Assembly (NCBI GenBank): GCA_964609895.1 | Contig: CAZSTG010000004.1 | Location: forward strand, 16,288 to 80,287 | Source of the DNA: an uncultured Gammaproteobacteria bacterium | GTDB lineage: Bacteria; Patescibacteriota; Microgenomatia; UBA10105; UBA927 | Length of the DNA stretch: 64,000 nt | Direction: 5' to 3' | Part shown: piece after piece, positions 538 through 46,770 of the stretch | Layout of the letters: each line of letters starts with the position of its first letter | Position numbering within the stretch: position 1 is the stretch's first letter | Notes under the pieces: generated by a model | Databases searched by the model: none | The model's input: the letters and a program-made list of their open reading frames with translations, nothing else | Told to the model about the DNA's origin: nothing | Program-made: the position numbers and the translations under genes

Positions 538-2259
538 TCATTGTATAGACTCCTGATTATGATACATCGTTTCTAGCTCGCTGACTGTTGTAATTTGTTG
601 TGCGCTTTTATCAGTTCGAATTCGAACAAGTCGAGGAAATCGTAAGGCAAACTGCGCCCCGTGTGACGGAGATTTCGTGATATCATCTGCAGCAATTTCA
701 ACAACTATTTTTGGTATTATCCACACATCCGGAATAAATGTCTTATCAACATTTGTATATTCTTTTGGTTGCTCTTTTGATGCATTCGCTTCAAAAAGCA
801 CCTTCATTTCTTTCCATAAATCATCTGTTACTCCGGTTCCAATTTTTGTCATCGTGACAAATGATTCGCCTTTTTTCACTCCCACCAAAAATGCGCCGAT
901 TCCAAAACCCGTTCGCTTCCCCTCCCCTTTGTAATACCCCATGACCACTGCATCCACCGTATCTGCCAATTTTCCCACTTTATTTTCTTCCTTAAATTTT
1001 ACCCACGTATACCCGCGTCGCCCAGGTTCATACACAGCTTCCCATTTCTTCACAACAACGCCTTCAAGACCTGAAGCAATTTGTTCTGCATGATACGTAC
1101 GGAGCGTTTGAATGTTGTCAGTCACGATATGGGGAGAAACAGATAAAATTGATCCTTTCGCAATAGTGTGCTCCAAAATATCCCGTCGTTTTGAAAGTGG
1201 AACACCCATAAGGTCTTCCCCGTCTTTTTCTAAAATATCAAACACAAAAAAACGCAAGGGCACGCTCTGTGTCGCACCGACAATATTATGCTTCCGTTTT
1301 CTCGTCATGGTTTCCTGAAACGGAATAATGCGGTGCATTTTTTCATCAAAACCGACTGCCTCACTGTCAAGAATCACGCTGTCGGCGTCAATTTGACCCG
1401 CAATTTTTTCAAGCTCCGGATACATTGCGGTCGTATTCTCCAGATTTCTTGAAAAACTCGAGACAAAGTGCATGCCGTTTTTCCTGAAAAAATGTATTTG
1501 CGTCCGGACGCCGTCATATTTTGGCTCAACATCCACTTCACCCATTTTTGTAATCATCTCTTCGGCGTTTTTCAGACGCTGACAAAGCGCCGCAAGAATC
1601 GGCGCGCCGACAACGGGTTTCACATGCGAAACCCCCTGTATCCCATGTTTTTTGATTTGTGTCGCAATATATCCGAGATCTGGTCGTACCTCATACGCCG
1701 CTTCAATTACCCCTTTGTGGGATTTGTCAGCCGTAAGCATCCATGACAATGCATCAATCATCGTCATATCTGAAAAACCCAAGCGAAGCTTATCAAGCGG
1801 GATTCTGACAAGATATCGAACGGAAAGCGAATCAGAATGGATAAACAAATCCGATAATGCCTCAATTTTTTGCTCTTGGGAACCTTCCCCTCCCATGAGT
1901 GCAATCGCCTTTAAGTGTTCAAACACCTCATGGATTGAATATCCTGCATCACGTTTTTTATCGCCCGCAATTTTTTCAGCTGCTGTTCCCAGATCCCCAT
2001 ATTTTTTAAAAAGCGCTGTCACATCCGCGTCCGTTATCTTATAGGTGTGCGCGATCGCACGAATCATCAACTTGTCGGCAATCCCGAATTCTATGGCTTC
2101 ATAGAGCGGTGCAACGCGCCCTTGCAGCAGGTAGCATAATTCACCGATTTCTTCAATTTCGGCATGGGAAAAAAGATCGGCAAGAATCTCCGTCATCGCG
2201 TTTCGAGAAGGAGTGTTTTCCAGTTTTTGAACGTAAACAGCAAGGGCTTGGAATCTCAT
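538..2259 (-). CDS. lig: ATP-dependent DNA ligase
   Basis: 573 aa. Adenylation motif I KYDGVR (EPKYDGVRTQIH). The length and domain order fit an ATP-dependent ligase. Confidence 0.8.
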   Translation of the reverse strand: MRFQALAVYVQKLENTPSRNAMTEILADLFSHAEIEEIGELCYLLQGRVAPLYEAIEFGIADKLMIRAIAHTYKITDADVTALFKKYGDLGTAAEKIAGDKKRDAGYSIHEVFEHLKAIALMGGEGSQEQKIEALSDLFIHSDSLSVRYLVRIPLDKLRLGFSDMTMIDALSWMLTADKSHKGVIEAAYEVRPDLGYIATQIKKHGIQGVSHVKPVVGAPILAALCQRLKNAEEMITKMGEVDVEPKYDGVRTQIHFFRKNGMHFVSSFSRNLENTTAMYPELEKIAGQIDADSVILDSEAVGFDEKMHRIIPFQETMTRKRKHNIVGATQSVPLRFFVFDILEKDGEDLMGVPLSKRRDILEHTIAKGSILSVSPHIVTDNIQTLRTYHAEQIASGLEGVVVKKWEAVYEPGRRGYTWVKFKEENKVGKLADTVDAVVMGYYKGEGKRTGFGIGAFLVGVKKGESFVTMTKIGTGVTDDLWKEMKVLFEANASKEQPKEYTNVDKTFIPDVWIIPKIVVEIAADDITKSPSHGAQFALRFPRLVRIRTDKSAQQITTVSELETMYHNQESIQ

Positions 2260-2271: not shown

Positions 2272-3315
2272 TTATCCTTTCAGGATATAACGAACGCCTT
2301 TTGTAGAACCTTGTTTTGAAAGTATGCCTTTTTTCATCAGATCTTTGATTTCCCGAAGTACCGTATCTTCGCTGATCATCGGAAATAATTCAAAAAACGC
2401 CTTGTTCTGCAAAAATCCATTCTCCTGAATAAACTCCACAATTTTTATCTGCCGTTCCGAAAGTGTCAGCTGTTGTCCGCCGAGTTGTTTCTTCATCTTC
2501 AAATCTGTTGACAATGTCTTAACCTTGTCCTTAATGCGTGAGAGCTCAATGGCTAGTCCTTCAGTAAAATATTCAAGCCAATGGGTGAGATTGCCATTTT
2601 CGACTGCAACGCTCTGAAGCGCCTGATAATAATTCAATGGTTCCCTGTCATAATATTCTTCCAGCGAAAAAAACCGCTTAATGTCGTATCCATCTCGAAA
2701 TAAGACAAGTGTTGCAATAGCCCGAGCTGCACGTCCGTTTCCGTCTAAGAAAGGGTGGATGCGGACAAGTTCATAATGGGTAATGCCGGCTTTGAGTGCC
2801 GCGTGCATTTCATCAGGCGCTGCATTCTTCAACCATAAAAGAAAATCGGAAACCAAAAAAGGAACTTCGACTGCCGGCGGAGGACGGAACGTAATTTCGC
2901 CCGTCTGGCTGTTTTTTACGACAACCTGCGATTTCCTGTATTCACCGACTACCGCTTCCGGCAATATGCGGTCAGCAATAAGCGAATGCACATGTTTCAC
3001 CGTCTCATCACTGATGGCGCCACCGTCATAGGATTCAATAAATTTTAAGACATTCCGATAATTTAATACTTCCTGAATATCACGATCCCTGCCGACTACT
3101 TTTGCACCCGCCAACACTTTTTCCGCTTCCGTAAAGTTCAATTCATTTCCCTCGATGTGTGTTCCGTGATGCACCGTCCGCACAATTGCCTCTTCCCTGA
3201 ATTTTGCTTCCCATGCGGGAACAAGCGGTGCATTTTCAATGACTTCTTTGGCGGCCTCAATGATGCCGATATTTTTCAGAATTTTATTGGTGATATTGAA
3301 GGTTGGCGTATACAT
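2272..3315 (-). CDS. Fic family protein (putative AMPylator/adenylyltransferase) with C-terminal winged-HTH
   Basis: Canonical Fic motif HPFLDGNGRAARA. An N-terminal THIEGN segment resembles the class II inhibitory helix. Start trimmed to the internal ATG at 3313-3315 to avoid overlap with the + strand ORF at 3343; the track ORF extends to 3393. Confidence 0.75.
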   Translation of the reverse strand: MYTPTFNITNKILKNIGIIEAAKEVIENAPLVPAWEAKFREEAIVRTVHHGTHIEGNELNFTEAEKVLAGAKVVGRDRDIQEVLNYRNVLKFIESYDGGAISDETVKHVHSLIADRILPEAVVGEYRKSQVVVKNSQTGEITFRPPPAVEVPFLVSDFLLWLKNAAPDEMHAALKAGITHYELVRIHPFLDGNGRAARAIATLVLFRDGYDIKRFFSLEEYYDREPLNYYQALQSVAVENGNLTHWLEYFTEGLAIELSRIKDKVKTLSTDLKMKKQLGGQQLTLSERQIKIVEFIQENGFLQNKAFFELFPMISEDTVLREIKDLMKKGILSKQGSTKGVRYILKG

Positions 3316-3342
3316 ATAGGGATATAGGTATATAATAAAGGT

Positions 3343-3603
3343 ATGGAAACCAAAAAACAATCCAAGGCAATGGCGCGGGCAATGTTGAAACAAATGATAG
3401 CATTGTCAACAGCTGCATTTGGACTTGTTGCAGCATTGGCATGGAATACGGTCATACAGGCGGCAATTGATACATACATCAAGCCATATATGCCAAAAGG
3501 AAGCGTTGTATTCTCCCAACTTGTGTATGCGGTGGTGGTTACCGCGCTGGCGCTTCTTGTGACGTATCTTCTGATGAAAATCAACGAAAAAATCGAAAAA
3601 TAA
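3343..3603 (+). CDS. small hypothetical membrane protein (two predicted TM helices)
   Basis: 86 aa with hydrophobic stretches AALAWNTVIQAAI and VYAVVVTALALLVTYLL. A TATAAT-like element at 3331-3336 lies just upstream. Confidence 0.45.
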   Translation: METKKQSKAMARAMLKQMIALSTAAFGLVAALAWNTVIQAAIDTYIKPYMPKGSVVFSQLVYAVVVTALALLVTYLLMKINEKIEK

Positions 3604-3618: not shown

Positions 3619-4410
3619 TTACAACAGCAGTGTTTTCATTGTTGTAGGAATCTGTAGAGCCAAATCGGTTGCATTAAAAAACGGCCCGACTGTTGTATAA
3701 AGATCATCACCTGCAGCCTTGTTGATAAAACTGCCGGCTACCGCTGCCAAAAAAGGATCATGTGTACATGCAAGTGCAGCAATAAGACCGGCAAGGACAT
3801 CTCCTGTTCCTCCTTTTGTCATTCCCGCGTTTCCGCCGGAAATTTTTTCTTCATGGATTCCATCCGTTATCACATCAATTTGCCCCTTTTCCACAACTAT
3901 ACAGGTATGTTGTTTGGCAAATGCAGTGGGGGTAATAGTGGGGTTTCCGTTTTGCAGCAGTGCAAATTCCTGATGATGTGGCGTCAAAATTGCATGCTGA
4001 GGAATATGCGCTGTATCCATCATCTGCAACGCGCCGGCATCAATCACCCATTGTTTATGTGGATAGGCTTGTAACAATCCGTCAGTTAATGTTTTGGTTT
4101 CCCGTGTCCGTTCCATTCCGGGACCAATCAGAATACAGTCATCCTCTTCAATATATGCAGGAAGCGCATTTCTCTGGATGACAATCCCATTTTTAAATGC
4201 TTCCTTTGCCGACTGGACTATCGCGTTGTTTTCAGGCGTTGATGCAAAATGTACCAAATCAACGATACGGGAAGCGACCGTGAGTGACCAAATGCTGGCC
4301 GCGTGGAACAAATCCGATCCGCCGATAATGAGAAGCTTTCCGTTCTGGCCTTTATGGGAATCGGGGTGGGGCAACCGCACATGCTCTTTGATGAATGTTT
4401 TATCAATCAT
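3619..4410 (-). CDS. nnrD: ADP-dependent NAD(P)H-hydrate dehydratase (YjeF C-terminal domain family)
   Basis: 263 aa. GGSDLF... and GGTGDVLAGLIAAL motifs of the carbohydrate-kinase-like YjeF_C domain. Confidence 0.75.
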   Translation of the reverse strand: MIDKTFIKEHVRLPHPDSHKGQNGKLLIIGGSDLFHAASIWSLTVASRIVDLVHFASTPENNAIVQSAKEAFKNGIVIQRNALPAYIEEDDCILIGPGMERTRETKTLTDGLLQAYPHKQWVIDAGALQMMDTAHIPQHAILTPHHQEFALLQNGNPTITPTAFAKQHTCIVVEKGQIDVITDGIHEEKISGGNAGMTKGGTGDVLAGLIAALACTHDPFLAAVAGSFINKAAGDDLYTTVGPFFNATDLALQIPTTMKTLLL

Positions 4411-4419
4411 ACGATACGC

Positions 4420-5505
4420 TTATTGTACTCTATGTACGACCGGCAATTGAATAATCTCGGCATTATGCAATTGTTTGAGCATGGGCAACAACTCTTCTTC
4501 TGCGGAGGTAATAATGGTTTGTTGGTGGTTAATGACGGAAAATACTATGCGCCGACTGTCTTCGTCAAGCTCGGAAAAAATATCATCAAGAAGTAACACG
4601 GGTCTGTCCCCTGATGACTTCTCAATAAAGGAAAGTTCCGCAAGTTTAAGCCATAATATAGCAAGCCGCTGTTCCCCCCGTGATCCGAATCTGGCAAGAT
4701 CAATGTATGCATGTTCACTCCCTATCTTTTCAAACCGGAAATCATCGCGTTGCGGACCAACGAGTGTAGACTTTGCCGCAATTTCTTCTTCTTTATATTG
4801 AAGCAGCCGAGAAGCTGAAATGACGCTTGGATCATACACAATGCGGTAAGAAAGGTCATCGAGTATATATGCATTGACCGCATCAATATATGCCTTTCTC
4901 TTCTCAGTAATATACGATCCTGTTTTGATAAGCAACTGATCCCAAAAGAACAACTGTGAACGTGTGGCATCACCTTCATGAATGCGGTCAAGCAGCGAAT
5001 TTCTCTGTCGCAATCCACGTTCATAGGATTGCAGATTTCGTCTGTATTCGCGGTCAATCTGCACCAACACGGTATTGAGATATTCCCGTCTGACACTGGG
5101 GCTTTCTGTAACTAACTTCAAATCAGTCGGCGAAAACAGCACCGCGCGGAGATTACCAATAAAATCAACCTGACGTCGTGGAATTCCGTTGACCAGATAT
5201 TTTTTTCCCTGTGTTTTTTGTCCCTGCACCATGCCTGTTGTCAGAATAATTTCCAACATTGTTTCAACGTTTTTTGCATCACACACCACATGTGTCACCC
5301 GCGCGAGTTCGTTTTCCCACAAAATCATGTCGCTGTCTTTGACGGCACGAAAACTTTTTCCAACCGCCGCCAGCGCTATTGCTTCAAGAATATTTGTTTT
5401 TCCTACTGCATTCTGCCCGACAAGCACTGTAACACCGGCTGAAAAAATAAATGTCTGTTTTGTATACAAGCGAAACTTCTGGAGAGTTGTTTGTACGATA
5501 CGCAT
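4420..5505 (-). CDS. recF: DNA replication and repair protein RecF
   Basis: 361 aa. N-terminal Walker [18 protein letters not shown]-like C-terminal signature and D-loop [11 protein letters not shown]. Confidence 0.85.
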
Positions 5506-5539
5506 GCTCTCATTGTATCATTTTCCGTTCTTTGGGTTA

Positions 5540-5569
5540 TTGCATCACCTGCGGTTTGTTGTGTATAAT
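5540..5569 (+). promoter_or_regulatory. sigma70-like promoter for rpmH operon (TTGCAT - 18 bp - TATAAT), nearly leaderless
   Basis: TTGCAT at 5540-5545 and TATAAT at 5564-5569. The predicted TSS is about 2-3 nt before the rpmH ATG at 5579, and there is no Shine-Dalgarno sequence. Confidence 0.4.
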
Positions 5570-5578
5570 AATGAGATT

Positions 5579-5719
5579 ATGGCAACGAAACGTGTTTATC
5601 ATCCAAGTAAAGCAAAACGTTCACGCACGCATGGATTTCGTACCCGCATGAAAACCAAAGGCGGACGAAGAGTGTTGAAACGACGTCGGGCAATAGGTCG
5701 AAAAACGCTTACCGTCTAA
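5579..5719 (+). CDS. rpmH: 50S ribosomal protein L34
   Basis: [46 protein letters not shown], 46 aa. The track fuses it to an antisense-of-recF shadow ORF (5189..5719). Confidence 0.9.
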
Positions 5720-5772
5720 GACTGGAATCCTTCAAACAAACCGAAACGGTTCGTTTCAGGTATAATACCCGT

Positions 5773-6102
5773 ATGCTTCCTTCTCGGTACAGATTATCAA
5801 AAAAAGATTTTATCCGAATCTTGCGTCGGGGCATTCGATCACAAAGCGGTGGTATACAGTTTATCTCAATGCAAACCGAAGCGTCATATGCACATCTGGG
5901 TATTCTTGTCACGAAGAAATACAGTAAGAAGGCGGTAGAACGAAATTGGATAAAAAAACGCATTGCTATGGCGTTTTTACCGTATCTGAAGGCAGAAACC
6001 ATCAGTACCGATATTGTCTGTAAAATTATGCAGCCGATGCGGGAAGACACAGTGAAAAACATACACACAACAATACAAAATTTCATCACTTCCCGGTTAT
6101 GA
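5773..6102 (+). CDS. rnpA: ribonuclease P protein component
   Basis: 109 aa, basic. Position directly after rpmH is the conserved rpmH-rnpA arrangement. Shows the RNR-like basic motif. Confidence 0.8.
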   Translation: MLPSRYRLSKKDFIRILRRGIRSQSGGIQFISMQTEASYAHLGILVTKKYSKKAVERNWIKKRIAMAFLPYLKAETISTDIVCKIMQPMREDTVKNIHTTIQNFITSRL

Positions 6103-6344
6103 AAAAAATATTGCTTGGTGCTATCCGGTTGTACCAACGCTATCTTTCACTCGACACAGGTTTGATACAACAGGTATGGAAAACCGGTAGTGTATGCCGG
6201 TTTACCCCCACCTGCAGTGAATACACATATCAGGCAATCGATCGCTATGGTATAATGATCGGATCGTGGTTAGGGTTCAAACGCATTATTCGTTGCCATC
6301 CATGGAATAAAGGCGGTTTTGACCCGATTCCCAAATCATTATGA
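6099..6344 (+). CDS. yidD: membrane protein insertion efficiency factor YidD
   Basis: 81 aa. Conserved cysteines C..PTCSEY. ATGA overlap with rnpA. Confidence 0.85.
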   Translation: MKKILLGAIRLYQRYLSLDTGLIQQVWKTGSVCRFTPTCSEYTYQAIDRYGIMIGSWLGFKRIIRCHPWNKGGFDPIPKSL

Positions 6345-7132
6345 CAAATCCCACCATCTGGAATCAGTTACTTGTCTGGCCAATCACCAATCTTCTCATG
6401 GTTTTTTATAAAATCTGTGAATGGCTGCATCTGCCTGGACCTTTGGGATTTGCTATTATTCTGCTCACTATTGCCGTTCGCCTTGTGCTCTATCCGTTAA
6501 TGCAGGCACAACTCAAAAGCGCAAAAAAGATGTCCGACATGAAACCGCACCTTGATGAACTGTCAAAAAAACATAAAGATGATAAACAGGCGCTGCAACA
6601 GGCGCAGCTTGCTCTCTATAAAGAACACGGTGTCAATCCCGCCGCAGGTTGCCTTCCAACACTAATTCAGTTTCCTATTCTTATTGCGCTCTATAATGTG
6701 TTTTATCAGGTGTTGGGAAACGGCAATGTGGGCAAAATGATGGAAGACATCAATGCTATCGTATATAACAAGTCGCTGCAGGTCACTGTATTGGATGTAA
6801 CATTCTTCGGTATGAATCTCGGCGTCAAACCAAGTGATTGGCAGCAATATGGCTGGTGGTTGTTGTTGGTACCTGTAATCACCGCGCTCCTGCAACTGTA
6901 TCAATCCAAACTTATGACACCTGCAACACCAAAAACAACAACTGCAATTGAGAAAACTGGAGAAGAGAAAAAACAAGATTCCATGGCGGACATGCAGAAA
7001 CAAATGATGTTCATCACGCCAATCATGTTTGGATTTTTCGCTTTCCAACTGCCTATTGGTCTAGCGTTGTACTGGAATATCTTCGGCCTTTTTGGTATCA
7101 TGCAGCAATTACAGGTAAATAAAGGAAAATAA
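6341..7132 (+). CDS. yidC: membrane protein insertase YidC (short, Gram-positive/CPR type)
   Basis: 263 aa, multi-TM. Position in the rnpA-yidD-yidC-jag operon. Conserved YidC core segments (LLTIAVRLVLYPL..., ALYWN). Confidence 0.8.
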   Translation: MTNPTIWNQLLVWPITNLLMVFYKICEWLHLPGPLGFAIILLTIAVRLVLYPLMQAQLKSAKKMSDMKPHLDELSKKHKDDKQALQQAQLALYKEHGVNPAAGCLPTLIQFPILIALYNVFYQVLGNGNVGKMMEDINAIVYNKSLQVTVLDVTFFGMNLGVKPSDWQQYGWWLLLVPVITALLQLYQSKLMTPATPKTTTAIEKTGEEKKQDSMADMQKQMMFITPIMFGFFAFQLPIGLALYWNIFGLFGIMQQLQVNKGK

Positions 7133-7133
7133 T

Positions 7134-7592
7134 ATGGAAGCAGCGGCAAAAATTAAAGAAGTCACAGAAGATCTTTTGCTTCGTCTCGGCATTACGGGTG
7201 AAGTCACAGTTGACATGGACGAATCCGGAGCGCATCGTGTCAACATAAACACGGAAGAAACAGGTCTCCTGATCGGATTTCATGGAAGGACACTGGAGAG
7301 TTTTCAAATGATTCTAGGGATGATTGTCGCAAAGACACTGGGAACATGGGAACGGGTGTATGTCAATGTCGGCGACTACCGCGAAAAACGGGAGGAAGCG
7401 CTGATGTATATGGCGCAGCGTGCTGCGGAACGGGCTATCACAGCAGGAAAACCCGTGGAATTATCTCACTTATCTGCAGCAGAACGGCGTGTTATTCATC
7501 TGACGCTTTCAGGAGATGAACGGGTAAGCACGGAGTCAGCGGGTGAAGGACGAGATCGAAAACTTATTATCACGCCGAAATCCACTGCATAA
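7134..7592 (+). CDS. khpB: RNA-binding protein Jag/KhpB (KH + R3H domains)
   Basis: 152 aa. R3H-like C-terminus ...ERRVIHLTLSGDERVSTESAGEGRDRKLIITP. Operon position after yidC. Confidence 0.8.
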   Translation: MEAAAKIKEVTEDLLLRLGITGEVTVDMDESGAHRVNINTEETGLLIGFHGRTLESFQMILGMIVAKTLGTWERVYVNVGDYREKREEALMYMAQRAAERAITAGKPVELSHLSAAERRVIHLTLSGDERVSTESAGEGRDRKLIITPKSTA

Positions 7593-22425: not shown

Positions 22426-22430
22426 ACTTG

Positions 22431-22502
22431 TGTCAGCGGCGGGGATCGGACCTGCGACACACGCCTTATGAAGGCGCTGCTCTACCACTGAGCTACGCTG
22501 AC
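22431..22502 (-). tRNA. tRNA-Met (anticodon CAT; elongator vs initiator vs Ile2-lysidine identity not resolvable by eye)
   Basis: Minus-strand read GTCAGCG-TA-GCTC-AGTGGTA-GAGC-A-GCGCC-TTCATAA-GGCGT-GTGTC-GCAGG-TCCGATC-CCCGC-CGCTGAC-A. Perfect 7-bp acceptor stem, U8/A9, 4-bp D-stem, U33 and A37 flanking CAT. One A-C mismatch in the T-stem and a non-canonical T-loop. Confidence 0.7.
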
Positions 22503-22512
22503 AATTGAAGCT

Positions 22513-22541
22513 ATTGTACGGGATTTACCCAGCAAAAACAA
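22513..22541 (-). promoter_or_regulatory. candidate promoter for tRNA-Met (TTGTTT - 17 bp - TACAAT on minus strand)
   Basis: Reverse complement of 22513-22541 gives TTGTTT-ttgctgggtaaatcccg-TACAAT, ending 10 nt upstream of the tRNA 5' end. Confidence 0.35.
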
Positions 22542-22743
22542 CCATTAATACAGAAGAATGTGTGGTCGTGCCGGCAAAAGATTGGTTGCCACACTCTACC
22601 CAGTCGGTTGTAGTGTTTACACCAGTTCCGAAAGGAATGTAGGTTTCTTTCAAAAAAGATGTGGCAGTGTGCCCAACACATTCACCGCCTCGCTATACAA
22701 AATGGTCAAAATCAGGTATACTCAGCTTTGTTCTTTAACGAAC

Positions 22744-22813
22744 CGCGGGGTAGTGTAAAGTTGCACAGAAGGCTCATAATCTTCTAGACCAGGTGCGATT
22801 CCTGGCTCCGCAA
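22744..22813 (+). tRNA. candidate second tRNA with CAT anticodon (non-canonical features)
   Basis: CGCGGGG-TA-GTGT-AAAGTT-GCAC-A-GAAGG-CTCATAA-TCTTC-TAGA-CCAGG-TGCGATT-CCTGG-CTCCGCA-A. Cloverleaf folds with U33/A37, a 4-nt variable loop and a 6-nt D-loop. C1 is opposite A72 (mismatch) and the T-loop TGCGATT lacks the usual TTC. A TATACT -10 element sits about 25 nt upstream. Confidence 0.4.
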
Positions 22814-22829
22814 CAAAGTTGACGACGTA

Positions 22830-22838
22830 TGCTATACT
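22830..22838 (+). promoter_or_regulatory. extended -10 promoter element (TGcTATACT)
   Basis: TG at 22830-22831 and TATACT at 22833-22838. No well-spaced -35. Would drive a short transcript toward tRNA-Trp. Confidence 0.4.
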
Positions 22839-23017
22839 AGTTGCCAAGTGAATAAATGTCACAGGAAGATTGATTGGGATCTTCCTATCGATGAAAATCG
22901 AGACTGAGAAGGCTACCTGCGCATTGAGCGAGGATGTCTGATCCAGAAGCTTACCTGTAAAAATAAAGCGCCATGTGTCGCGTTCCTGCGGAGCATGTAA
23001 TAAGATTTCTTACATGT

Positions 23018-23041
23018 CCCTCGCATAGGCGGGGGATTTTT
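23018..23041 (+). terminator. intrinsic-terminator-like hairpin (CCCTCGC-atag-GCGGGGG followed by ATTTTTGT)
   Basis: 7-bp GC-rich stem with one U-G pair, 4-nt loop and a T-rich tail. Confidence 0.45.
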
Positions 23042-23080
23042 GTAAGCGATGAAACAAGGTGGAACAGCCTTTTTATGTAG

Positions 23081-23129
23081 GCCCTTGTAAGTTACCAAAA
23101 CTATTTTGGTGATTTACAAGGGCTTTTTT
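23081..23129 (+). terminator. strong rho-independent terminator (GCCCTTGTAA ... TTACAAGGGC + TTTTTT)
   Basis: 10-bp perfect stem (23081-23090 / 23114-23123) with internal sub-hairpin, then a T6 run at 23124-23129, ending 8 nt before tRNA-Trp. Confidence 0.6.
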
Positions 23130-23136
23130 CGTTTGT

Positions 23137-23207
23137 AGGGGTGTAGTGAAACGGTATCACGGCAGTCTCCAAAACTGCTATTTCAGGTTCAAATCCTGAC
23201 ACCCCTG
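23137..23207 (+). tRNA. tRNA-Trp (anticodon CCA)
   Basis: AGGGGTG-TA-GTGA-AACGGTA-TCAC-G-GCAGT-CTCCAAA-ACTGC-TATT-TCAGG-TTCAAAT-CCTGA-CACCCCT-G. All stems perfect. Canonical TTCAAAT T-loop. U33 and A37 flank CCA. Confidence 0.85.
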
Positions 23208-23297
23208 CCTATGAATCACTATACACAAACATCGTGGAGGACATACTGGCGAAGCAATTCGTTTGTATTAACCCGTAAAAATTTTGGAAAAGGAACT

Positions 23298-26070: not shown

Positions 26071-27123
26071 CTATATCCTCAACTTCTTTGTCGGATGCGC
26101 GATTGCATGATACAACACACTTACGCAAAGCGTTGCAACAAAAGACAGGAGTAAACGAATGCCATATCCCAGATGAAAAGAAACGCCCACATGCTCCAAA
26201 AAAAACCGTATTATTGGCAGCTGAAACATAATAAATTCAAAACTAATGGCGCCAAGAAACAGAAAAATGTTTTTAGATAACAGCCAAGAAACTGAACCTC
26301 TGGCATAGGCAAAAAGCAACAGACATATACTCACGCTTGGCAGAAAAAACATGCTAAAACGGTATGCATCGGGAACATATTCCGCCAGAAAAATACTCAT
26401 TCCTAGAATACTTATGCTCTCCAGTTCTAGCACGGTTGCTATCCGGCGGGTAAAATGTTTCGTCATTGGATGAGATACAAAAAAAACGTATAACAGCATC
26501 CCTGTTACAAACTCGAATATTTTCGAAAATGGCGATATATATAAAAAATACGCCGCGTGACGCACACCAAAAAAATAGATGATGAAAAATTCTATCATCC
26601 AAAGCAATAAAATTGTTGACCATGAATGAAATCGATAGATGACCCGCAAGAGAAAGGGGAACGCTATCCAGCAAAAAATTAACGAGGATAAACTCCAAGC
26701 AACAGAATTAAAGGAATAGGCATATTGCAGTGAAGGAATATACGATTGCAGTAACAGCAGATTCGCTATCAACATGCTCCAAAATCGTTCTCCATATTCA
26801 TGAACAACAAAAGGAATGGTTATTCCCAACGTTAACAGGTGCAGGGGAAGAATTCGTTTCAGACGTTTGAGGCCATATGTTCCCCAATCAAACGTATGTG
26901 TTTGCAAACGCCACTGATAATTTGCCGTCAGTAAAAAACCGGAAAGAATAAAAAACGCGGTCGTCCCCGCATACCCATATGCAAGAAGCGGCATTTCTAG
27001 CAGATTAATAAAGGGGATCGCGCGAAATAACAGTGTATGATTTAAAAAAATAGCGATAGCTGCAAAAAAACGAATGGAAGTAAGCGGCAGTATACGATGA
27101 AAACTTTTTTCCAACACGCGCAT
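26071..27123 (-). CDS. acyltransferase family 3 (OafA/YrhL-like) integral membrane O-acyltransferase
   Basis: 350 aa with about 10 TM segments. N-terminal LTSIRFFAAIAIFLNH signature. Confidence 0.6.
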   Translation of the reverse strand: MRVLEKSFHRILPLTSIRFFAAIAIFLNHTLLFRAIPFINLLEMPLLAYGYAGTTAFFILSGFLLTANYQWRLQTHTFDWGTYGLKRLKRILPLHLLTLGITIPFVVHEYGERFWSMLIANLLLLQSYIPSLQYAYSFNSVAWSLSSLIFCWIAFPFLLRVIYRFHSWSTILLLWMIEFFIIYFFGVRHAAYFLYISPFSKIFEFVTGMLLYVFFVSHPMTKHFTRRIATVLELESISILGMSIFLAEYVPDAYRFSMFFLPSVSICLLLFAYARGSVSWLLSKNIFLFLGAISFEFIMFQLPIIRFFLEHVGVSFHLGYGIRLLLSFVATLCVSVLYHAIAHPTKKLRI

Positions 27124-27142
27124 AGTTCTTCTTAATCATTTG

Positions 27143-27844
27143 TTAAGACACATGTTTCTCTTTCGATTCCGACACAACTTTTCCCTTCTCCAAATGAATG
27201 ATACGTTGAAATAAATATTTAAACTTTTCTATAGTGTGCGAGCTGGCAACCACTGTTATATCCTTTTGACGAATTAAGCGCTGCAATGTCCTTTTTGTTT
27301 TTCGTCTATAATTAGCATCACCCACGTTAATCATTTCATCAAGTATCAGAATATCGGGCTCTGAATGAATGGCTATTGCAAAACCTAGCCGTAACATCAT
27401 TCCGCTTGAATACGTAAACAACGGCACATCAATAAACCTTCCTATGTCGGCATATGTAATAATTGCTGCGAGTTTCTGATCTATCTCCTTCTTCGACATA
27501 CCAAGCAACATACCGTTAATATAGATATTTTGTAGGCCGGTTAGATCACTGTGAAATCCTGCTTCAAGTCCAATAAGCGATATTATTTTCCCTTCGGTGT
27601 AAACCCGACCACGGGTCGGTGTACAGATACCGGAAAGAATTTTTAAAAGGGTCGTTTTCCCTGATCCGTTGGGACCAACGAAACCGACGCTTTCACCCTT
27701 ATGAATAGTTAAATTAATGGTGTCGAGAGCGAGAAACCGTTCGTCTTTGCCATTAATAAGTTTTTCAACAAGAGTAGGTTTTTCATGATGGATAATATAC
27801 TCTTTGGATATATGATCCAGTTTAATAGCAACAGTATTTTTCAT
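27143..27844 (-). CDS. ABC transporter ATP-binding protein (Wzt/TagH/KpsT-like glycan exporter)
   Basis: Walker A GPNGSGKTTLLKILSG. ABC signature and Walker B ILILDE. Start trimmed to MKNTVAIKLDHISKEY at 27842-27844. Confidence 0.8.
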   Translation of the reverse strand: MKNTVAIKLDHISKEYIIHHEKPTLVEKLINGKDERFLALDTINLTIHKGESVGFVGPNGSGKTTLLKILSGICTPTRGRVYTEGKIISLIGLEAGFHSDLTGLQNIYINGMLLGMSKKEIDQKLAAIITYADIGRFIDVPLFTYSSGMMLRLGFAIAIHSEPDILILDEMINVGDANYRRKTKRTLQRLIRQKDITVVASSHTIEKFKYLFQRIIHLEKGKVVSESKEKHVS

Positions 27845-27848
27845 AGTA

Positions 27849-28616
27849 TTAAATCCAATCATCAAAATTTTTACTCTCTCTCCGAAAGATAAGAATGCCA
27901 AGTGCCGCTATCAAAACAATCAGAGCACTATTTATCTGAAGCATCCGAGAACTCGGAAAAGGCAGGTTTAAAAAACTGTGCTGCAATATAAGAACAATAG
28001 ACGTCATGGGATTAAAATTCCATAAAAAAAGTAATCGTTCTGGAATAACAGACAGGGTATACACAATGGGTGTCGCGTAGAACCACACGGTAAGGAGTGC
28101 TTGAGTAAAAAATGCGACATCACGATATTTTACATGAAGGGCACTTGTCAGAAGACTTAAGCCGGTAGTAAAAACCAACAATAGTATGAGTGCAAAAAAC
28201 AGACTCGGCAGCCTTGCAATAACCTCAAATCCGCCTACTGTTGCGATAATTCCCAATATAAAAAGCGCTAATAAAAAATTAAAAAAATCTGCTAAAATGA
28301 TGGACATCGGAATTACTTCTCTAGGAAAAGCTGCTTTTTTTACCAAAGACCGTTCGTGGACAATGCATTGAGTCGTCTTAGAAAGGGAAATATTAAAAAA
28401 CCCCCATGCCAATAATCCCGTAAACAAATAATAATACTGATTTTGTATTTGCTGCTTAAAAATAAACTGGAAAATAAACCCGATGACAAGCATCTGCAGC
28501 ACTGGATTAATCACCATCCATAAAAAACCAAAAGCTGTATGTTTATAACGTACACGCAATTCTTTATCCGTTAAAGTAAATAACAGTGATATAAAATACC
28601 GTAAGCGCTTCATCAT
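27849..28616 (-). CDS. ABC-2 type transporter permease (Wzm/TagG-like)
   Basis: 6 TM segments. Sits immediately upstream of the ATPase. Start trimmed to MMKRLRYF (track ORF extends to 28676). Confidence 0.7.
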   Translation of the reverse strand: MMKRLRYFISLLFTLTDKELRVRYKHTAFGFLWMVINPVLQMLVIGFIFQFIFKQQIQNQYYYLFTGLLAWGFFNISLSKTTQCIVHERSLVKKAAFPREVIPMSIILADFFNFLLALFILGIIATVGGFEVIARLPSLFFALILLLVFTTGLSLLTSALHVKYRDVAFFTQALLTVWFYATPIVYTLSVIPERLLFLWNFNPMTSIVLILQHSFLNLPFPSSRMLQINSALIVLIAALGILIFRRESKNFDDWI

Positions 28617-28658
28617 CAAGGGGATTATACTACATACTGTTCCTTTTTTGTCTATGGT

Positions 28659-29267
28659 ATGATAAGAAAAACGCATTCCAACAATGAATATATGACTGCT
28701 GTATCACCACACATTTCAGTCTATAAAAGACCTCCCAAACAGATACATGAACAAATTAAACAACTCGGTTATATTTGTTTTGCTAACAAAAAACTAAGTG
28801 AAGTAGAACAGAAAATAAATCAAGACCAGATAACGGCAGATAAACCAGAAAAAGTTATAGTTGCAGTGGAAAATGGCGCGCTTCTTGGAAGAATAAAAAT
28901 ATTCAAAAGAGCTTCAGTATTTGATAACACCCGTATCACTATTGGAGGAATAGGTGGAGTCTGTGTGGAACCACATGTGAGAAATCAGGGAATCGGTTCT
29001 CGTTTACTCCGCGCCGCTTTGGTGGAAATCAAAAAAAGTAATGTTGATATTGCTCTCCTTCTTGTTGATTCTAAGAACAAAAAGGCAATTTCACTGTATC
29101 AAAAATTTGGCTTCACCCTCTTACAAAATAACGTTCTCTACACGGGTAAATCAGGAACACTATATACACAAAAAGGTGCGATGATAGCACCAATACGATC
29201 CAATAACATATACTCCAAGATATGCACCGTAAAAATCCCTGTACATATCGGTTGTGGTAATTTTTAA
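28659..29267 (+). CDS. GNAT family N-acetyltransferase
   Basis: 202 aa. Acetyl-CoA-binding motif GGVCVEPHVRNQGIGSRLLRAAL. Confidence 0.7.
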   Translation: MIRKTHSNNEYMTAVSPHISVYKRPPKQIHEQIKQLGYICFANKKLSEVEQKINQDQITADKPEKVIVAVENGALLGRIKIFKRASVFDNTRITIGGIGGVCVEPHVRNQGIGSRLLRAALVEIKKSNVDIALLLVDSKNKKAISLYQKFGFTLLQNNVLYTGKSGTLYTQKGAMIAPIRSNNIYSKICTVKIPVHIGCGNF

Positions 29268-29317
29268 TTACTTGCTATACTACTAGCACTCTGCCACCAA
29301 CAAATACGCTGCTCCTT

Positions 29318-30289
29318 GTGCGATATAATACATTGCTTATGTATCAGCTCCAATTACTAAAAACCACGATTGCAAATGGCTTTCTTCATGTTGTCATACG
29401 GCTTACTCCACCAATATATGCAAAAAAATATTCCAAAACCACTGGCATAATAACAAAAATTGGGCATAAGTATATAACAATGTATATATTGATGATGAAG
29501 ACGTTTGTGTTCTTTTCTAAACTCTCGCTTGCCACCTGTGTCATTGATGATGGAACATTGACAAAACACGACAAACAAGTTCTTGCAAAACACGTCAGAA
29601 ATATTCGCATCATCAGTGCTTCTGCCGGTCTGAAAGCGGTAAAAAAAATAAAAACAAGATACCCATATATATATAGATACCGCATGGAGACTCATCCAGA
29701 TCTATTTACCCACAACACATGTCTATATGATCTTACGCAGTTGTCAGGATTTAAAAAATTTATTATTCTTGACGCGGATATAGTTTTTTTTAAAAAACCG
29801 ACAACCATTATTAATTGGGTGAATTCAAAAAATGAGCGCACGTATTATATGGCGTTTCCATCCAGCTATCTGTACGCAACAAGTGGATGGGGGAGAATAA
29901 TCCTACAGATTTTTTCCACACTTTGGAAATCAGATATTCCTGTGTTATTTAATGACGGTATTATTTGTGGATATAAGCACTGGTTTACATTAGACGTGCT
30001 CGAGCGACATACGAAAATGGTCTATGCGTATGGATTGCAACATTCTTGGATCAGTCTTATTCTTATCTGGTCAGGCATCTTTTTGCATTTTTCTAAAAAC
30101 CCAAAAACTCCAATCTCACCGCTTCCGGCAGTACACTATGGCATTTTAACTGTAAAAACGCTCCAGTCTCGTCTTAGAAACGCCGTGTTCTCCTATACGT
30201 GTCTACATTATATCGGCCCATTTAAAAACCTGTATCTACCATTGGACGCATATAAGCTATTTATTTCTTACTGCACACATAATCTATGA
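29318..30289 (+). CDS. hypothetical protein, tandem paralog A of uncharacterised DxD family (putative nucleotide-sugar transferase)
   Basis: 323 aa. Shares motifs with the next gene: DDGTLTKHDK / DDGTLTTKDK, ILDADIVFFKKPTTIINW / LLDSDVLFFSRPTAIIDW, and CLHY / IHYH near the C-terminus. Confidence 0.45.
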   Translation: MRYNTLLMYQLQLLKTTIANGFLHVVIRLTPPIYAKKYSKTTGIITKIGHKYITMYILMMKTFVFFSKLSLATCVIDDGTLTKHDKQVLAKHVRNIRIISASAGLKAVKKIKTRYPYIYRYRMETHPDLFTHNTCLYDLTQLSGFKKFIILDADIVFFKKPTTIINWVNSKNERTYYMAFPSSYLYATSGWGRIILQIFSTLWKSDIPVLFNDGIICGYKHWFTLDVLERHTKMVYAYGLQHSWISLILIWSGIFLHFSKNPKTPISPLPAVHYGILTVKTLQSRLRNAVFSYTCLHYIGPFKNLYLPLDAYKLFISYCTHNL

Positions 30290-31227
30290 ACATGGTACTC
30301 AAAAACACAAGGCAAAAACTGATAAAAACGCTTGTGTATCTTCTGTTGCAATGTACAAAACCGGTTGTACTTAATCAAACACAATATAATGTGTCATTTT
30401 GCTCCATGGTGTCTCATAATCATCTCCTCCTCTATATAGTCGCTATCAAATCGTTCATCTATTGGTCACATCTCCATCTGCCAGCAATGATTGTTGATGA
30501 TGGAACACTGACAACAAAAGATAAAGCACTGCTTACTTATCACCTGAAACATTGCCTTGTTATATCAAAAAAAACAGCGGATAAAAAAGCAAAACGGGAG
30601 CTTCGGGCTTATCCTCATTGTCTCACATACAGATTAGATACAACTCACGACATCGAAACACATAATCAAAAATTATTTGACCCTTTTTTATTGTGTCGAA
30701 CGGACTATTTCATTCTTTTGGATTCTGATGTCCTATTCTTTTCCCGCCCCACTGCAATCATTGATTGGATCAAAAGCGACAAAAAACATTTTGTGTATAT
30801 GCAATATAACCCCTTGTATATACAGACATGCAACACATGGGGAATGCTAACAATGAAAATTTTTGCAAAGCTCGTTGGAAATCCAAGTGCAGTTAAACTC
30901 AATTCCGGACTCGTATGCGGCAAAACGTCATTATTTTCACTTGCGAAAGCTGAGCAACTTTGCGCTGCCTATTTTACCTACAGATTAAACCGTACTTGGT
31001 TGGGAGATCAGCCGGTTCTTGCACAGATATTCCTGTCTGAAAAAAAATCAGTCACTAAAAAATCCGGCTTACCAAGCGATACGTTTTGCATACTCACAGA
31101 TGCCAATATGAGAAAAAACTTGTGGAAAAAGGCGTGTATCCACTATCATACAGGCATAAATAAACATCTTTGTTTTATAGACAGTATTCGCTTATTGCTG
31201 AAAACTCAGCTTTTTACAAAATCATAG
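30286..31227 (+). CDS. hypothetical protein, tandem paralog B of the same DxD family
   Basis: 313 aa. ATGA overlap with paralog A. Roughly 30 percent identity to it by eye over the full length. Confidence 0.45.
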   Translation: MNMVLKNTRQKLIKTLVYLLLQCTKPVVLNQTQYNVSFCSMVSHNHLLLYIVAIKSFIYWSHLHLPAMIVDDGTLTTKDKALLTYHLKHCLVISKKTADKKAKRELRAYPHCLTYRLDTTHDIETHNQKLFDPFLLCRTDYFILLDSDVLFFSRPTAIIDWIKSDKKHFVYMQYNPLYIQTCNTWGMLTMKIFAKLVGNPSAVKLNSGLVCGKTSLFSLAKAEQLCAAYFTYRLNRTWLGDQPVLAQIFLSEKKSVTKKSGLPSDTFCILTDANMRKNLWKKACIHYHTGINKHLCFIDSIRLLLKTQLFTKS

Positions 31228-31232
31228 AGTAA

Positions 31233-31979
31233 TTGACAGTATTACATATGAAACACCAATATAGTAATTTTGTCATTCTTACGACACAAAGAACAGGTTC
31301 TACCTATATTGCGCATCTGTTGGATTCCCATCCGTCCGTCGTATCTTATGGCGAAATATTCCACCGGTTCGGCGTTGGTTGGGGAAGCAGGACACAGCGC
31401 ACAAACACGAGGTGGTTATTCTATATGCGCAACATCTTTCCCATCGTGTTTCTCAACACGCAGGTGTTTCATGCATATCCGTCAAACATTCGTGCTGTCG
31501 GTTTTAAACTGATGTACGGTCAAGCTACCCGTTTTCCGTCAGTTCTGCGGTACCTTGCAAATCAGCAAAGTACTATTATTTTTCTCAACCGCAAAAACCT
31601 ACTCGAGTCACTCGTATCACTCAAACGCGCGCAGTATTCCCGTATTTGGACTCTCAAATCAGCATCGGAAAAACCAGCAATCCACATATATATAGATGAA
31701 CAGGAGTGTCTCAATTATTTTATGGAGACGGATTGTCTTCATCGGCAATTCTGTGCGTATTTCAAAAAAAACCCTTCCATGCAGATATATTATGAGGACG
31801 TGTGTCAGAAAGGGACGCATGGACTTGATGCGGTGCAGCGTTTTTTGGCAATCCCCAGAAAACCGCTCTCTTCTCCAATTACAAAACTGAGAGGAGCTCC
31901 GCTAGAGGAAACGGTAGTAAATTACTTCGAGTTGAAAAAAAAGTTTTCCAAAACGAAATGGGCATCATTTTTTCCATGA
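31233..31979 (+). CDS. putative sulfotransferase (Stf0/Sulfotransfer_3-like PAPS-binding N-terminus)
   Basis: N-terminal motif NFVILTTQRTGSTYIAHLL resembles the 5'-PSB loop (x-R-[ST]-G-S-T) of Stf0-type carbohydrate sulfotransferases. About 245 aa. Confidence 0.45.
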   Translation: MTVLHMKHQYSNFVILTTQRTGSTYIAHLLDSHPSVVSYGEIFHRFGVGWGSRTQRTNTRWLFYMRNIFPIVFLNTQVFHAYPSNIRAVGFKLMYGQATRFPSVLRYLANQQSTIIFLNRKNLLESLVSLKRAQYSRIWTLKSASEKPAIHIYIDEQECLNYFMETDCLHRQFCAYFKKNPSMQIYYEDVCQKGTHGLDAVQRFLAIPRKPLSSPITKLRGAPLEETVVNYFELKKKFSKTKWASFFP

Positions 31980-33022
31980 AACGCATTTTATATATATCAT
32001 CGACAGACGAATCAGCTTCCATCCAAAATACGGAAAGAAGAAAGGCTTTGTTGCAGGAGCTCGGTTTTTCCGTCACTCTGTATACGTCAAAACAACAGGG
32101 TCTTTCGGAACTGCTGCAGTTGATTCCACACATACACACCTATACCATGCTCTATATACGTATTGACGGATCCTGTCGCCTTGACAAATTCAGCTTTCTC
32201 AAACTTATTCGTCCTTCACTCAGAATCGTTTGGGAAATTCATGGATTTCCGGAAGAAAATGATAGAAACAGCCACAGTGCACGTACTCATGGGCTCAGTG
32301 CGATCAAGAGACTGGTATATTCCGCATGTGCAAACGGGTATGTTTTTGTCTCTGAAGAGTTGCAGCAATATGCAAAGAAAAAAATACTTCGGCGTCCTCA
32401 AACCGTCATTCCAAATTTTATTCCGTCCGGTTTCAAACAATCCTTTAAACATACGCCGTCCAAAACCCTTAGGTCAAAAGGCACATCGCTTCGATATGTT
32501 TTATGGACCGGCAATGGAGCGTATCCGTGGCATGCGCTCGATATACTCGAACAGGTGGCAAAACTGTCTTACCGGCGCAATAAACATATTCGGTTTATAG
32601 TAATTTCCCCATATCTTTGGCATACGTTTTCCTGGTATCGGAATATCCTGTTTATCGCAGGGGCTCCCAATACCGTGGTACAGAAGTATATTGGGCAAAG
32701 TGATGTGTGTCTTGCGCTGTATCACAAACCGCCCGCATGCCCGTTTTATTTTTCTCCGTTGAAAATTCTCGACTATATGATCAACAAAAAACCTGTTATT
32801 GCAACAGGGTTAGGGCAAATAAACACAGTAATAGCCGATGGGATTAACGGGTATGTCACGGATAATGAGCCTGAAGACATCGTGGAAAAAATTCAGTATC
32901 TCATAACTCACCCTAAGGAAAGAACCGCGATGGGGGATAAGGGGTATGATACCATCACTTGCCAAAGGTCATATGCTAAGGCAAAAAAAGCGTATCAGGC
33001 ATTTTTTAATAAAATATGGTAA
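31958..33022 (+). CDS. glycosyltransferase family 4 (GT-B fold)
   Basis: C-terminal GT4 signature KKPVIATGLGQINTVIADGINGYV. Confidence 0.65.
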   Translation: MGIIFSMKRILYISSTDESASIQNTERRKALLQELGFSVTLYTSKQQGLSELLQLIPHIHTYTMLYIRIDGSCRLDKFSFLKLIRPSLRIVWEIHGFPEENDRNSHSARTHGLSAIKRLVYSACANGYVFVSEELQQYAKKKILRRPQTVIPNFIPSGFKQSFKHTPSKTLRSKGTSLRYVLWTGNGAYPWHALDILEQVAKLSYRRNKHIRFIVISPYLWHTFSWYRNILFIAGAPNTVVQKYIGQSDVCLALYHKPPACPFYFSPLKILDYMINKKPVIATGLGQINTVIADGINGYVTDNEPEDIVEKIQYLITHPKERTAMGDKGYDTITCQRSYAKAKKAYQAFFNKIW

Positions 33023-38268: not shown

Positions 38269-38355
38269 GGTTTGACAAATACCCTGCTTCTCTTTATCAT
38301 AAGCATACGCTGTGCGGGTGATATCGCACACTTTTTTTATAACGTATTATCACGT

Positions 38356-39648: not shown

Positions 39649-39761
39649 AACGAAAAAGCCTAATAATGATCATACTATAGCGTATTGGGGATGACTTGGA
39701 CAATATGACGTGCCCTTTTATCGGAAAAGCCGTACAATGAATCAATCTGTGACCCATAGAC

Positions 39762-41835: not shown

Positions 41836-41896
41836 TTTTGTTGTTATAAAAAGAAAACATTGTTACAATAAAGGCCAACTTGTCCCGAAAATCACT

Positions 41897-44751: not shown

Positions 44752-44754
44752 ACA

Positions 44755-45705: not shown

Positions 45706-45721
45706 ATAAAAACATCTCCTG

Positions 45722-46744: not shown

Positions 46745-46770
46745 AGAGAATTGTGCAGTGCAAGTATAAC

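Follow-up and report, generated by a model that had tools for sequence, protein, structure and literature searches.

Introduction

In the textbook order at a bacterial origin, for example in Bacillus subtilis, the genes rpmH and rnpA (with yidC and jag) are divergent from dnaA-dnaN-recF-gyrB. The window analysed here, a stretch of 64,000 nucleotides of contig CAZSTG010000004.1, raises the question of how recF came to face rpmH at one end of a chromosomal region and dnaA-dnaN came to lie at the other. A preliminary description reported recF divergent from rpmH-rnpA-yidD-yidC-jag without DnaA boxes between them, and dnaA-dnaN with their boxes about 45 kb away.

That geometry was borne out. The recF gene occupies 4420-5505 on the minus strand, the rpmH operon 5579-7592 on the plus strand, and dnaA-dnaN 52069-54732, 46.6 kb off. 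The same description offered two causes, the transposition of dnaA-dnaN with the origin out of an ancestral locus or an insertion, about 45 kb long, of genes for the envelope and glycans. Here, we show that a different account very probably explains the window: one old inversion of the segment from rpmH to an amino-acid-kinase-family gene, aak (5579-39057, 33.5 kb), with the origin unmoved.

Materials and methods

Family models were used for calling the genes (for RecF, TIGR00611 with a cut-off of 172 bits), and the key proteins all matched clearly. An alignment scan for RecF over species-representative genomes gave 80 loci, onto which 58 window proteins were then mapped by tblastn, and a YidC-centred scan of metagenome contigs was used for the surroundings of rpmH in relatives. 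The compared loci from these scans carry L-numbers such as L001. Neighbour-joining trees were made of the YidC and Jag concatenate and of RecF alone. Composition was compared as the coding-strand GC skew of orthologues at all sites and at third positions (GC3) with Mann-Whitney tests. The scans for GC skew and DnaA boxes covered the 64-kb window.

By its closest homologues, the window is a chromosomal piece of Patescibacteria (candidate phyla radiation, CPR), from the Microgenomates near Gottesmanbacteria. Homologue searches with its RecF, DnaA and YidC all found the nearest sequences in Microgenomates and Gottesmanbacteria metagenome genomes.

A probable single inversion between recF and dnaA

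The following features lie at the two ends of the proposed inversion.

538-2259, minus strand, ATP-dependent DNA ligase (TIGR00574, 376 bits), the in-window far end of the recF-nnrD-Fic-ligase block
2272-3393, minus strand, Fic-domain protein (family match)
3343-3603, plus strand, small DUF5654 gene between Fic and nnrD (PF18898, 5e-19), in the same place in relatives
3619-4410, minus strand, nnrD, NAD(P)H-hydrate dehydratase of the YjeF C-terminal type, the gene that commonly follows recF in Microgenomates
4420-5505, minus strand, recF (TIGR00611, 261 bits)
5506-5578, recF/rpmH spacer of 73 bp, proposed inversion junction 1
5579-39057, proposed inverted segment from rpmH to aak, 33,479 bp, collinear with GCA_040960215.1 but oppositely oriented relative to recF
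5579-5719, plus strand, rpmH (translation of 46 protein letters)
5773-6102, plus strand, rnpA (family match)
6099-6344, plus strand, yidD (family match)
6341-7132, plus strand, yidC (family match)
7134-7592, plus strand, jag (family match)
34315-36174, plus strand, ftsH
36190-37131, plus strand, 5'-3' exonuclease
37147-38268, plus strand, GT4
38272-39057, plus strand, aak
39057/39058, proposed inversion junction 2, where the stop of aak abuts the stop of Bac_transf, convergent and 0 bp apart
39058-51922, glycan-biosynthesis block between the segment and dnaA

The ancestral order would have been T4SS> dnaN< dnaA<, then inserted glycan genes ending in Bac_transf>, then rpmH>...aak> recF> nnrD> Fic> ligase>, where T4SS denotes genes like those of a type IV secretion system. 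In such an order dnaA would be divergent from rpmH, and recF would be on the rpmH side, about 30 kb further down, instead of behind dnaN. Breaks between Bac_transf and rpmH and between aak and recF, in the ancestor of a Gottesmanbacteria subclade, would then have let the segment turn round. The new junctions would be the divergent recF/rpmH at 5.5 kb and the convergent aak/Bac_transf at 39.06 kb, leaving rpmH 46.6 kb from dnaA.

In this event dnaA-dnaN, the origin and the T4SS neighbour would all have stayed in place. About 28 genes, including rpmH, rnpA, yidC, L25, EF-P, tyrS and ftsH, would have been turned head-on to the leftward fork, and their base composition would since have drifted toward the skew of the lagging strand. 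As the simplest reading, we infer a single old event and, from outgroup reasoning, that it went in this direction.

All four junctions were found. Both derived ones are in the window, and each recurs in a relative, recF/rpmH in L083 and aak/Bac_transf in L084, a relative of 177 kb. As for the ancestral ones, relatives have both: at least 22 loci carry aak> recF>, and L111 carries Bac_transf> rpmH>. Moreover, the block of xer, divIC, PALP and tyrS...aak, which on the plus strand of the window ends at 39057, is cut off from its continuation, recF-nnrD-Fic-ligase, which runs inverted from 5505 down to 538. In relatives, ftsH-exonuclease-GT4-aak leads directly into recF.

The inversion predicts that un-inverted genomes carry rpmH...aak> recF> collinearly on one strand. 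GCA_040960215.1 does so: rpmH (about 86.3 kb) and recF (56.85 kb) share a strand of a single contig, about 29.5 kb apart. Its gene order rpmH>...L25>...divIC> tyrS> ftsH> exo> GT4> aak> recF> matches the 5.6-39 kb part of the window. Since the T4SS neighbour of dnaN does not change between relatives with and without the rearrangement, dnaA-dnaN did not move.

In the YidC and Jag tree, all loci with the recF/rpmH junction make up one clade with no other state inside. The YidC identity within this clade goes down to about 65%, so the inversion is not recent. The surmise that the gene order here is not the textbook one of rpmH, dnaA-dnaN-recF holds, and a rearrangement did part rpmH from dnaA. 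The synteny comparison that the preliminary description called for found the split order common to the whole clade, so that it is inherited and not recent in this genome. The rearrangement is of an ordinary kind, old and clade-wide.

Gene order in the relatives

The Chloroflexota loci of the same scan keep the textbook order, jag< yidC< yidD< rpmH< divergent from dnaA> dnaN> recF>. Microgenomates have instead a conserved co-directional block, (xer<) (divIC) (PALP) tyrS> ftsH> 5'-3' exo> GT4> (aak)> recF> (nnrD)> Fic> ligase>. Its core ftsH> exo> GT4> (aak)> recF> was found in at least 22 loci from Gottesman-, Woese-, Levy-, Ames-, Collier- and Chisholmbacteria and in a contig of 1.22 Mb. The downstream string of recF, (nnrD), (DUF5654), Fic and ligase is kept across many Microgenomates orders, in more than 30 collinear loci (including L003-L035, L088 and L093).

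In none of about 50 Patescibacteria and Microgenomates loci is recF directly behind dnaN. The sole Patescibacteria locus with dnaA less than 10 kb from recF is L052, where recF is on the rpmH side, and L054 has a partial dnaN-like match about 2.8 kb upstream. As recF belongs to a separate conserved block and never follows dnaN, the separation of the two is ancient and lineage-wide, not particular to this genome.

The surroundings of rpmH fall into four states. In State A, (prgI> traC> virB4> M23>) dnaN< dnaA< directly faces rpmH> (L103, L132, L152 and L157), or does so across inserts of 4-9 kb, consisting of murL-murD, a large surface protein or other genes (L138, L139 and L170). In State B, glycan or ABC transporter genes ending in Bac_transf> precede rpmH> (L111, L112, L114 and L148), and L111 has GT2> Bac_transf> rpmH> with Bac_transf directly adjoining rpmH. 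The gap between dnaA and rpmH appears to be an insertion hotspot.

State C is the layout of the window, ligase< Fic< nnrD< recF< divergent from rpmH>. It was found in 14 metagenome loci and in L001, L083, L086, L090, L091 and L174, with RecF identities to the window of 85% (L001), 79% (L083), 68% (L086) and 61-62% (L090 and L091). State D is another inversion at the same breakpoint upstream of rpmH (L096, L097 and L130, for example 800-9400 of L130). Its order, aaRS1> h311< efp< aaRS2< surA< HhH-GPD< TPR> followed by rpmH>...L25>, where aaRS is an aminoacyl-tRNA synthetase, has the genes that normally come after L25 flipped ahead of rpmH.

Other occupants of the place upstream of rpmH were also seen. 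A murL-murD pair stands directly upstream and co-directional in L139 (6442-9113, between dnaA and rpmH), L142, L150, L108 and L092. In L170, L135 and L168 the place is taken by a large secreted protein whose sequence closes with ...WQEVAP.

Here, 46.6 kb separate dnaA from recF; two relatives of State C have 36.2 and 47.2 kb, and the un-inverted 1.22-Mb genome has 93.7 kb. Compared with the textbook order, the window still has dnaA and dnaN adjacent, boxes on both sides of dnaA and an intact rpmH-rnpA-yidD-yidC-jag operon, and in relatives of this organism dnaA is still divergent from rpmH. It differs in that recF is not behind dnaN, as in Microgenomates generally, and that rpmH is 46 kb from dnaA and faces recF. 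The rpmH (5579) and dnaA (52069) genes are both on the plus strand here, while they are divergent in L103, L132, L152 and L157. Directly after dnaA comes dnaN, and after dnaN come T4SS-like genes instead of recF and gyrB.

The candidate origin at dnaA-dnaN

The features around dnaA are as follows.

52031-52049, inverted DnaA-box pair, TGTGGATAA g TTGTCCACA, between the dnaA promoter and its ATG, kept in 7 relatives
52069-53442, plus strand, dnaA (TIGR00362, 441 bits)
53443-53625, plus strand, candidate oriC in the 183-bp dnaA-dnaN spacer, with DnaA boxes, a GC cluster and trio-like repeats
53626-54732, plus strand, dnaN (TIGR00663, 294 bits)

That the origin stays with dnaA-dnaN is supported by three features of that place: its DnaA boxes, an element like a DnaA-trio and the skew minimum at 52.5 kb. 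From its motifs, we infer that oriC is in the dnaA-dnaN spacer at about 53.45-53.62 kb. The cumulative G-C of the window falls from the left end, past 5.5 kb, reaches its lowest point at 52,519 and climbs from there. The preliminary description expected the minimum at 53.4-53.6 kb and not at 5.5 kb; within the window it is indeed at the dnaA-dnaN locus and not at 5.5 kb.

Perfect DnaA boxes are at 52031 (minus strand), 53455 and 53488, those with one mismatch at 52041 and 53476, and weaker ones at 53449 and 53585. The spacer beside dnaA accordingly holds at least three boxes with no more than one mismatch (53455, 53476 and 53488). The whole window has 40 matches at this level against 18 expected; perfect boxes flank dnaA, and none cluster at recF/rpmH. 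The 73-bp recF/rpmH spacer has a sigma-70-like promoter for rpmH (TTGCAT ... TGTGTATAAT). The box scan found no DnaA-box cluster in it, the sole match having one mismatch and overlapping the -10 element.

In the dnaA-dnaN spacer, the boxes at 53449, 53455, 53476 and 53488 are followed by a TTGACA promoter element and then the box TTTTCCACG (53585). Next come a GC cluster, CGC, then A and six trio-like triplets, TTA CTA TTA CTA CTA CTT, and a short AT-rich tail of about 13 nt, ATAGAAATAAT, before the ATG of dnaN. This architecture is kept in 9 relatives of both layouts. They have two to four boxes at the dnaA end, the TTGACA element, and a conserved core of CATACAC-TTTTCCAC(A/G), a short GC cluster, TTA CTA TTA CTA CTA CTT and the AT-rich tail.

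The DnaA-trio has been defined as 3'-[G/A]A[T/A]-5' in more than three repeats after a DnaA box and a GC cluster (PMC7561715). Read by its letters alone, the spacer fits this definition. It is of the Firmicutes-like type and resembles incC of B. subtilis and oriC2 of Clostridioides difficile in having 3-5 DnaA boxes between dnaA and dnaN, with two more upstream of dnaA. The last box, CGC and six [C/T]T[A/T] triplets compare with 5'-CACCTACTACTATTACTACTATGA-3' of C. difficile (PMC7561715). The likeness is one of sequence, and the AT-rich tail of about 13 nt is very short. The upstream set here is merely a pair and looks like an autoregulation site rather than a second half of the origin.

The inverted pair upstream of the dnaA ATG is probably a site of dnaA autoregulation. 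The gene itself probably starts at the ATG of 52069, which gives a 457-aa product as in relatives, and not at the TTG of 52030, which opens the longest dnaA open reading frame (ORF) and overlaps the inverted pair. No database entry is identical to the 457-aa DnaA product, and the top match is 94% identical.

Base composition of the flipped genes

With replication starting at dnaA-dnaN, the inversion would have shifted the flipped genes from the leading strand to the lagging one. The genes from the rpmH operon to EF-P have opposite skews in the two layouts. Their orthologues average a coding-strand GC skew of +0.064 when un-inverted (States A and B and aak> recF> loci, n=10) and -0.066 when inverted (n=17), with p=2e-5. 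The GC3 skew of the same genes is +0.134 versus -0.087 (p=1e-4). The sign change between the layouts is consistent. As a control, the recF-ligase block is positive in both, +0.22 in un-inverted and +0.12 in inverted genomes. The tyrS-aak genes have +0.21 in un-inverted relatives versus +0.02 in this window, the only inverted sample for them.

Since the skew is reversed in the flipped genes and not in their flanks, an origin at the recF/rpmH junction is disfavoured. The drift of the skew in the flipped genes also implies that the inversion is old.

Weighing the explanations

Several points weigh against a single inversion. The skew samples include duplicate or near-duplicate contigs and related genomes, so their p-values overstate independence, and the skew of the window's own inverted segment is only weakly negative at -0.03. 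In the RecF tree, State C loci cluster save for long-branch L129, which falls outside the four nearest un-inverted genomes and leaves room for a second event or a reversal. The state before the inversion is pieced together from several relatives rather than seen in one stretch with dnaA, Bac_transf, rpmH...aak and recF, and GCA_040960215.1 has murL-murD upstream of rpmH instead of glycan genes. No inverted repeats or mobile-element remnants linking 5.5 and 39.06 kb were found in the window, as expected if the event is old.

It is very improbable that an ancestral locus of recF< dnaN< dnaA< facing rpmH> lost dnaA-dnaN and oriC by excision, and that these were put back about 46 kb off. Deleting dnaN-dnaA from the flipped canonical order would yield exactly the divergent recF/rpmH, and the Chloroflexota loci do have dnaA> dnaN> recF>. 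However, recF directly follows dnaN in none of the roughly 50 Patescibacteria loci and otherwise stands behind ftsH-exo-GT4-aak, its other conserved block. Relatives have T4SS> dnaN< dnaA< facing rpmH> without recF, dnaN keeps the same T4SS neighbour in either layout, and a transposition would not alter the orientation and base skew of the rpmH...aak segment. It is improbable as well that some 45 kb of inserted envelope and glycan genes drove the rpmH side and dnaA-dnaN apart. Glycan DNA of variable content and low GC does occupy 39.06-51.9 and 26.1-34.2 kb, relatives vary in what is inserted at the dnaA/rpmH gap (glycan genes, murL-murD or surface proteins), and the dnaA-recF distance goes from 36 to 47 kb among close relatives. 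Yet the interval is mostly housekeeping DNA, about 25 kb of it collinear with relatives but reversed, and the housekeeping genes at 5.6-26 and 34.3-39 kb are present in this region of un-rearranged relatives. An insertion between dnaA and rpmH would keep recF behind aak, not against rpmH. It thus covers about 13 kb of the dnaA-rpmH separation and the island of about 8 kb, and leaves the recF/rpmH junction unexplained. We ascribe the rpmH-dnaA split to the glycan-gene insertion of about 13 kb together with the old, clade-wide inversion.

That the layout took two or more rearrangements, or that the inversion was repeated or reversed in some lineages, is unlikely; repeated breakage upstream of rpmH would favour it. 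The misplaced L129 in the RecF tree, the inversion of L096, L097 and L130 that shares the breakpoint upstream of rpmH, and the several different inserts at the dnaA/rpmH boundary all speak for it. On the other side, one inversion explains all four junctions and the YidC and Jag tree gives a single clade; the branch of L128 and L129 is long, and a neighbour-joining tree of one gene is weak evidence. A functional origin that moved to the divergent recF/rpmH junction, or a second one there, is hardly credible. Gene orientation does switch at 5.5 kb, from minus leftward to 80% of coding bases on plus rightward. But the 73-bp spacer has no DnaA-box cluster, the cumulative G-C is still falling there on its way to 52.5 kb, the rightward genes have a lagging-type skew in this clade and a leading-type one in their un-inverted orthologues, and the motif-rich dnaA-dnaN spacer is conserved. 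The contig comes from a metagenome assembly and CPR bins are often fragmented, so a mis-assembled or chimeric recF/rpmH junction had to be considered. Its chance is vanishingly small, as the junction recurs in at least 15 independent contigs that differ in sample and assembler, and in NCBI, JGI, ENA and Logan assemblies of many samples, with RecF identities of 54-100%.

The single inversion of rpmH...aak resembles other one-sided inversions near the origin, with a contiguous segment reversed between conserved flanks, genes passing from leading to lagging and a later drift of GC skew. The type usually favoured is the symmetric inversion that spans the origin. The inversion here differs from that type, as the origin is not inside, translation and essential genes are head-on and yet the inversion is fixed in the clade, and no repeat or insertion sequence was found at the ends.

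The boundary upstream of rpmH has had at least three outcomes: the recF-side inversion, the TPR/HhH-GPD inversion and the varied inserts of glycan, murLD and surface-protein genes. We only tentatively suggest, as a doubtful proposition taken jointly, that this boundary is a recurrent hotspot of breakage and insertion in Microgenomates and that a one-sided, head-on inversion has persisted throughout a clade.

The interval between recF and dnaA

The inverted segment begins with the rpmH operon, Wzy-like, flippase, RNase H, DUF4012, L25, TPR (minus strand), HhH-GPD and SurA-like genes. It goes on with class II aaRS, EF-P, a hypothetical, class I aaRS (minus strand), a Xer-type recombinase (minus strand), DivIC and three tRNAs, and ends with a PALP enzyme, tyrS, a low-GC glycan/ABC island, ftsH, 5'-3' exonuclease, GT4 and the amino-acid kinase. 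The plus strand carries 80% of the coding bases in 5579-39057, which is head-on to a fork from 53.5 kb. Besides envelope and glycan genes, the recF-dnaA interval contains L25, EF-P, three aminoacyl-tRNA synthetases, the Xer-type recombinase, DivIC and three tRNAs, and likewise ftsH, the 5'-3' exonuclease and aak, which is probably UMP kinase.

Two further features lie within the segment.

22430-23209, three tRNA genes, tRNA-Met (minus strand), tRNA-Met (plus strand) and tRNA-Trp (plus strand), in an ORF-poor stretch between divIC and the PALP enzyme
26071-34236, low-GC island (0.36-0.39) between tyrS and ftsH

The Rfam and tRNA scans of the window found only these three tRNAs (22.4-23.2 kb) and no RNA gene at the junctions.

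The island includes an acyltransferase, an ABC-2 exporter pair, GNAT, three hypotheticals without a Pfam match and two glycosyltransferases. Most relatives have tyrS no more than about 2.5 kb from ftsH, and the two are directly adjoining in L004 and L093. The island is probably a later insertion within the segment. State B relatives have homologues of its ABC pair (50-59% identical) ahead of Bac_transf and rpmH, so the glycan-export ABC genes seem to move around.

The glycan block next to dnaA (39058-51922) has Bac_transf (minus strand), GT2, GT1, Gfo/Idh/MocA, DegT, WecG, GT2, an epimerase, RmlC, a hypothetical, Wzy-like, GT4 and a hypothetical. Orthologous blocks are upstream of dnaA in L084 and L087. 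The block is on the dnaA side of the breakpoint and is not inverted.

The T4SS-like cluster beside dnaN

The genes that follow dnaN are as below.

54736-55827, minus strand, hypothetical
55739-57919, minus strand, M23 peptidase
57941-59809, minus strand, VirB4-like ATPase (CD1110 family, 394 bits)
59806-60462, minus strand, TraC/TrsD-like gene
60464-61837, minus strand, PrgI-family gene
61872 to beyond 64000, plus strand, VirD4-like coupling protein

The preliminary description had a T4SS-like operon following dnaN. The T4SS-like genes are there, but not as a co-directional operon, since those on the minus strand converge on dnaN. Nor is their standing in place of recF and gyrB an oddity, being the usual and published layout of Patescibacteria (PMC12102498). 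The same cluster is at dnaN in L084, L087, L089, L152 and L157, in both layouts (State C relatives, the un-inverted 1.22-Mb genome and State A loci), and keeps this position down to a DnaA identity of 66-71%. Its genes are head-on in every layout, and their coding-strand GC skew averages -0.06.

In Microgenomatia and Paceibacteria, virB4 has been reported near dnaN, dnaA, rpmH and rnpA (Microb Genom 2025, PMC12102498). The window agrees with this description of the chromosomal T4SS of Patescibacteria, as VirB4-, TrsD/TraC-like, PrgI/VirB3-like and VirD4-type coupling protein genes and a cell-wall hydrolase are near dnaA and dnaN. It differs from the published layout in that rpmH and rnpA are removed from the virB4 neighbourhood by the inversion. 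A relaxase was not matched among the window ORFs scanned. We considered a recently integrated conjugative element and rejected it, as the cluster is in the same place down to 66-71% DnaA identity and in the published account as well (PMC12102498).

Implications

The apparent anomaly of this locus is cleared up: the origin is at dnaA-dnaN, the place of recF and the T4SS beside dnaN are what this lineage normally has, and the sole real event is the old inversion. For curating and orienting CPR genomes, ftsH-exo-GT4-aak-recF-nnrD-Fic-ligase and T4SS-dnaN-dnaA with divergent rpmH can serve as synteny anchors, and annotators should not expect recF behind dnaN. The recF/rpmH junction is a cheap marker, as a rare genomic change, for one Gottesmanbacteria subclade.

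The inverted and un-inverted sister lineages are a test case for the pace at which skew re-equilibrates, and also for the tolerance of CPR bacteria for head-on essential genes. The mildly interesting points are the one-sidedness of the inversion, the many translation and other essential genes turned head-on, and the seemingly reused boundary upstream of rpmH.

Minor observations on the left block

The true start of Fic is probably inside the ORF of 2272-3393, as relatives point to a 347-aa product. The recF-ligase string is usually preceded by ftsH, the 5'-3' exonuclease, GT4 and the amino-acid kinase. A set with a repair flavour, namely recF, a FEN-like exonuclease and an archaeal-type ligase, may make up one functional module with Fic and the metabolite-repair enzyme.

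Within the rpmH operon, RnpA is only 62%, 52% and 34% identical to its counterparts in L001, L083 and L086, and its neighbours RpmH, YidC and Jag are 78-96% identical. In more distant loci of the inverted clade (L090, 8873-9748; L091, 8408-9589; L134, L137 and L144-L146), an extra gene splits rpmH from rnpA. It encodes either a 291-aa hypothetical or a 393-aa MFS-like protein.

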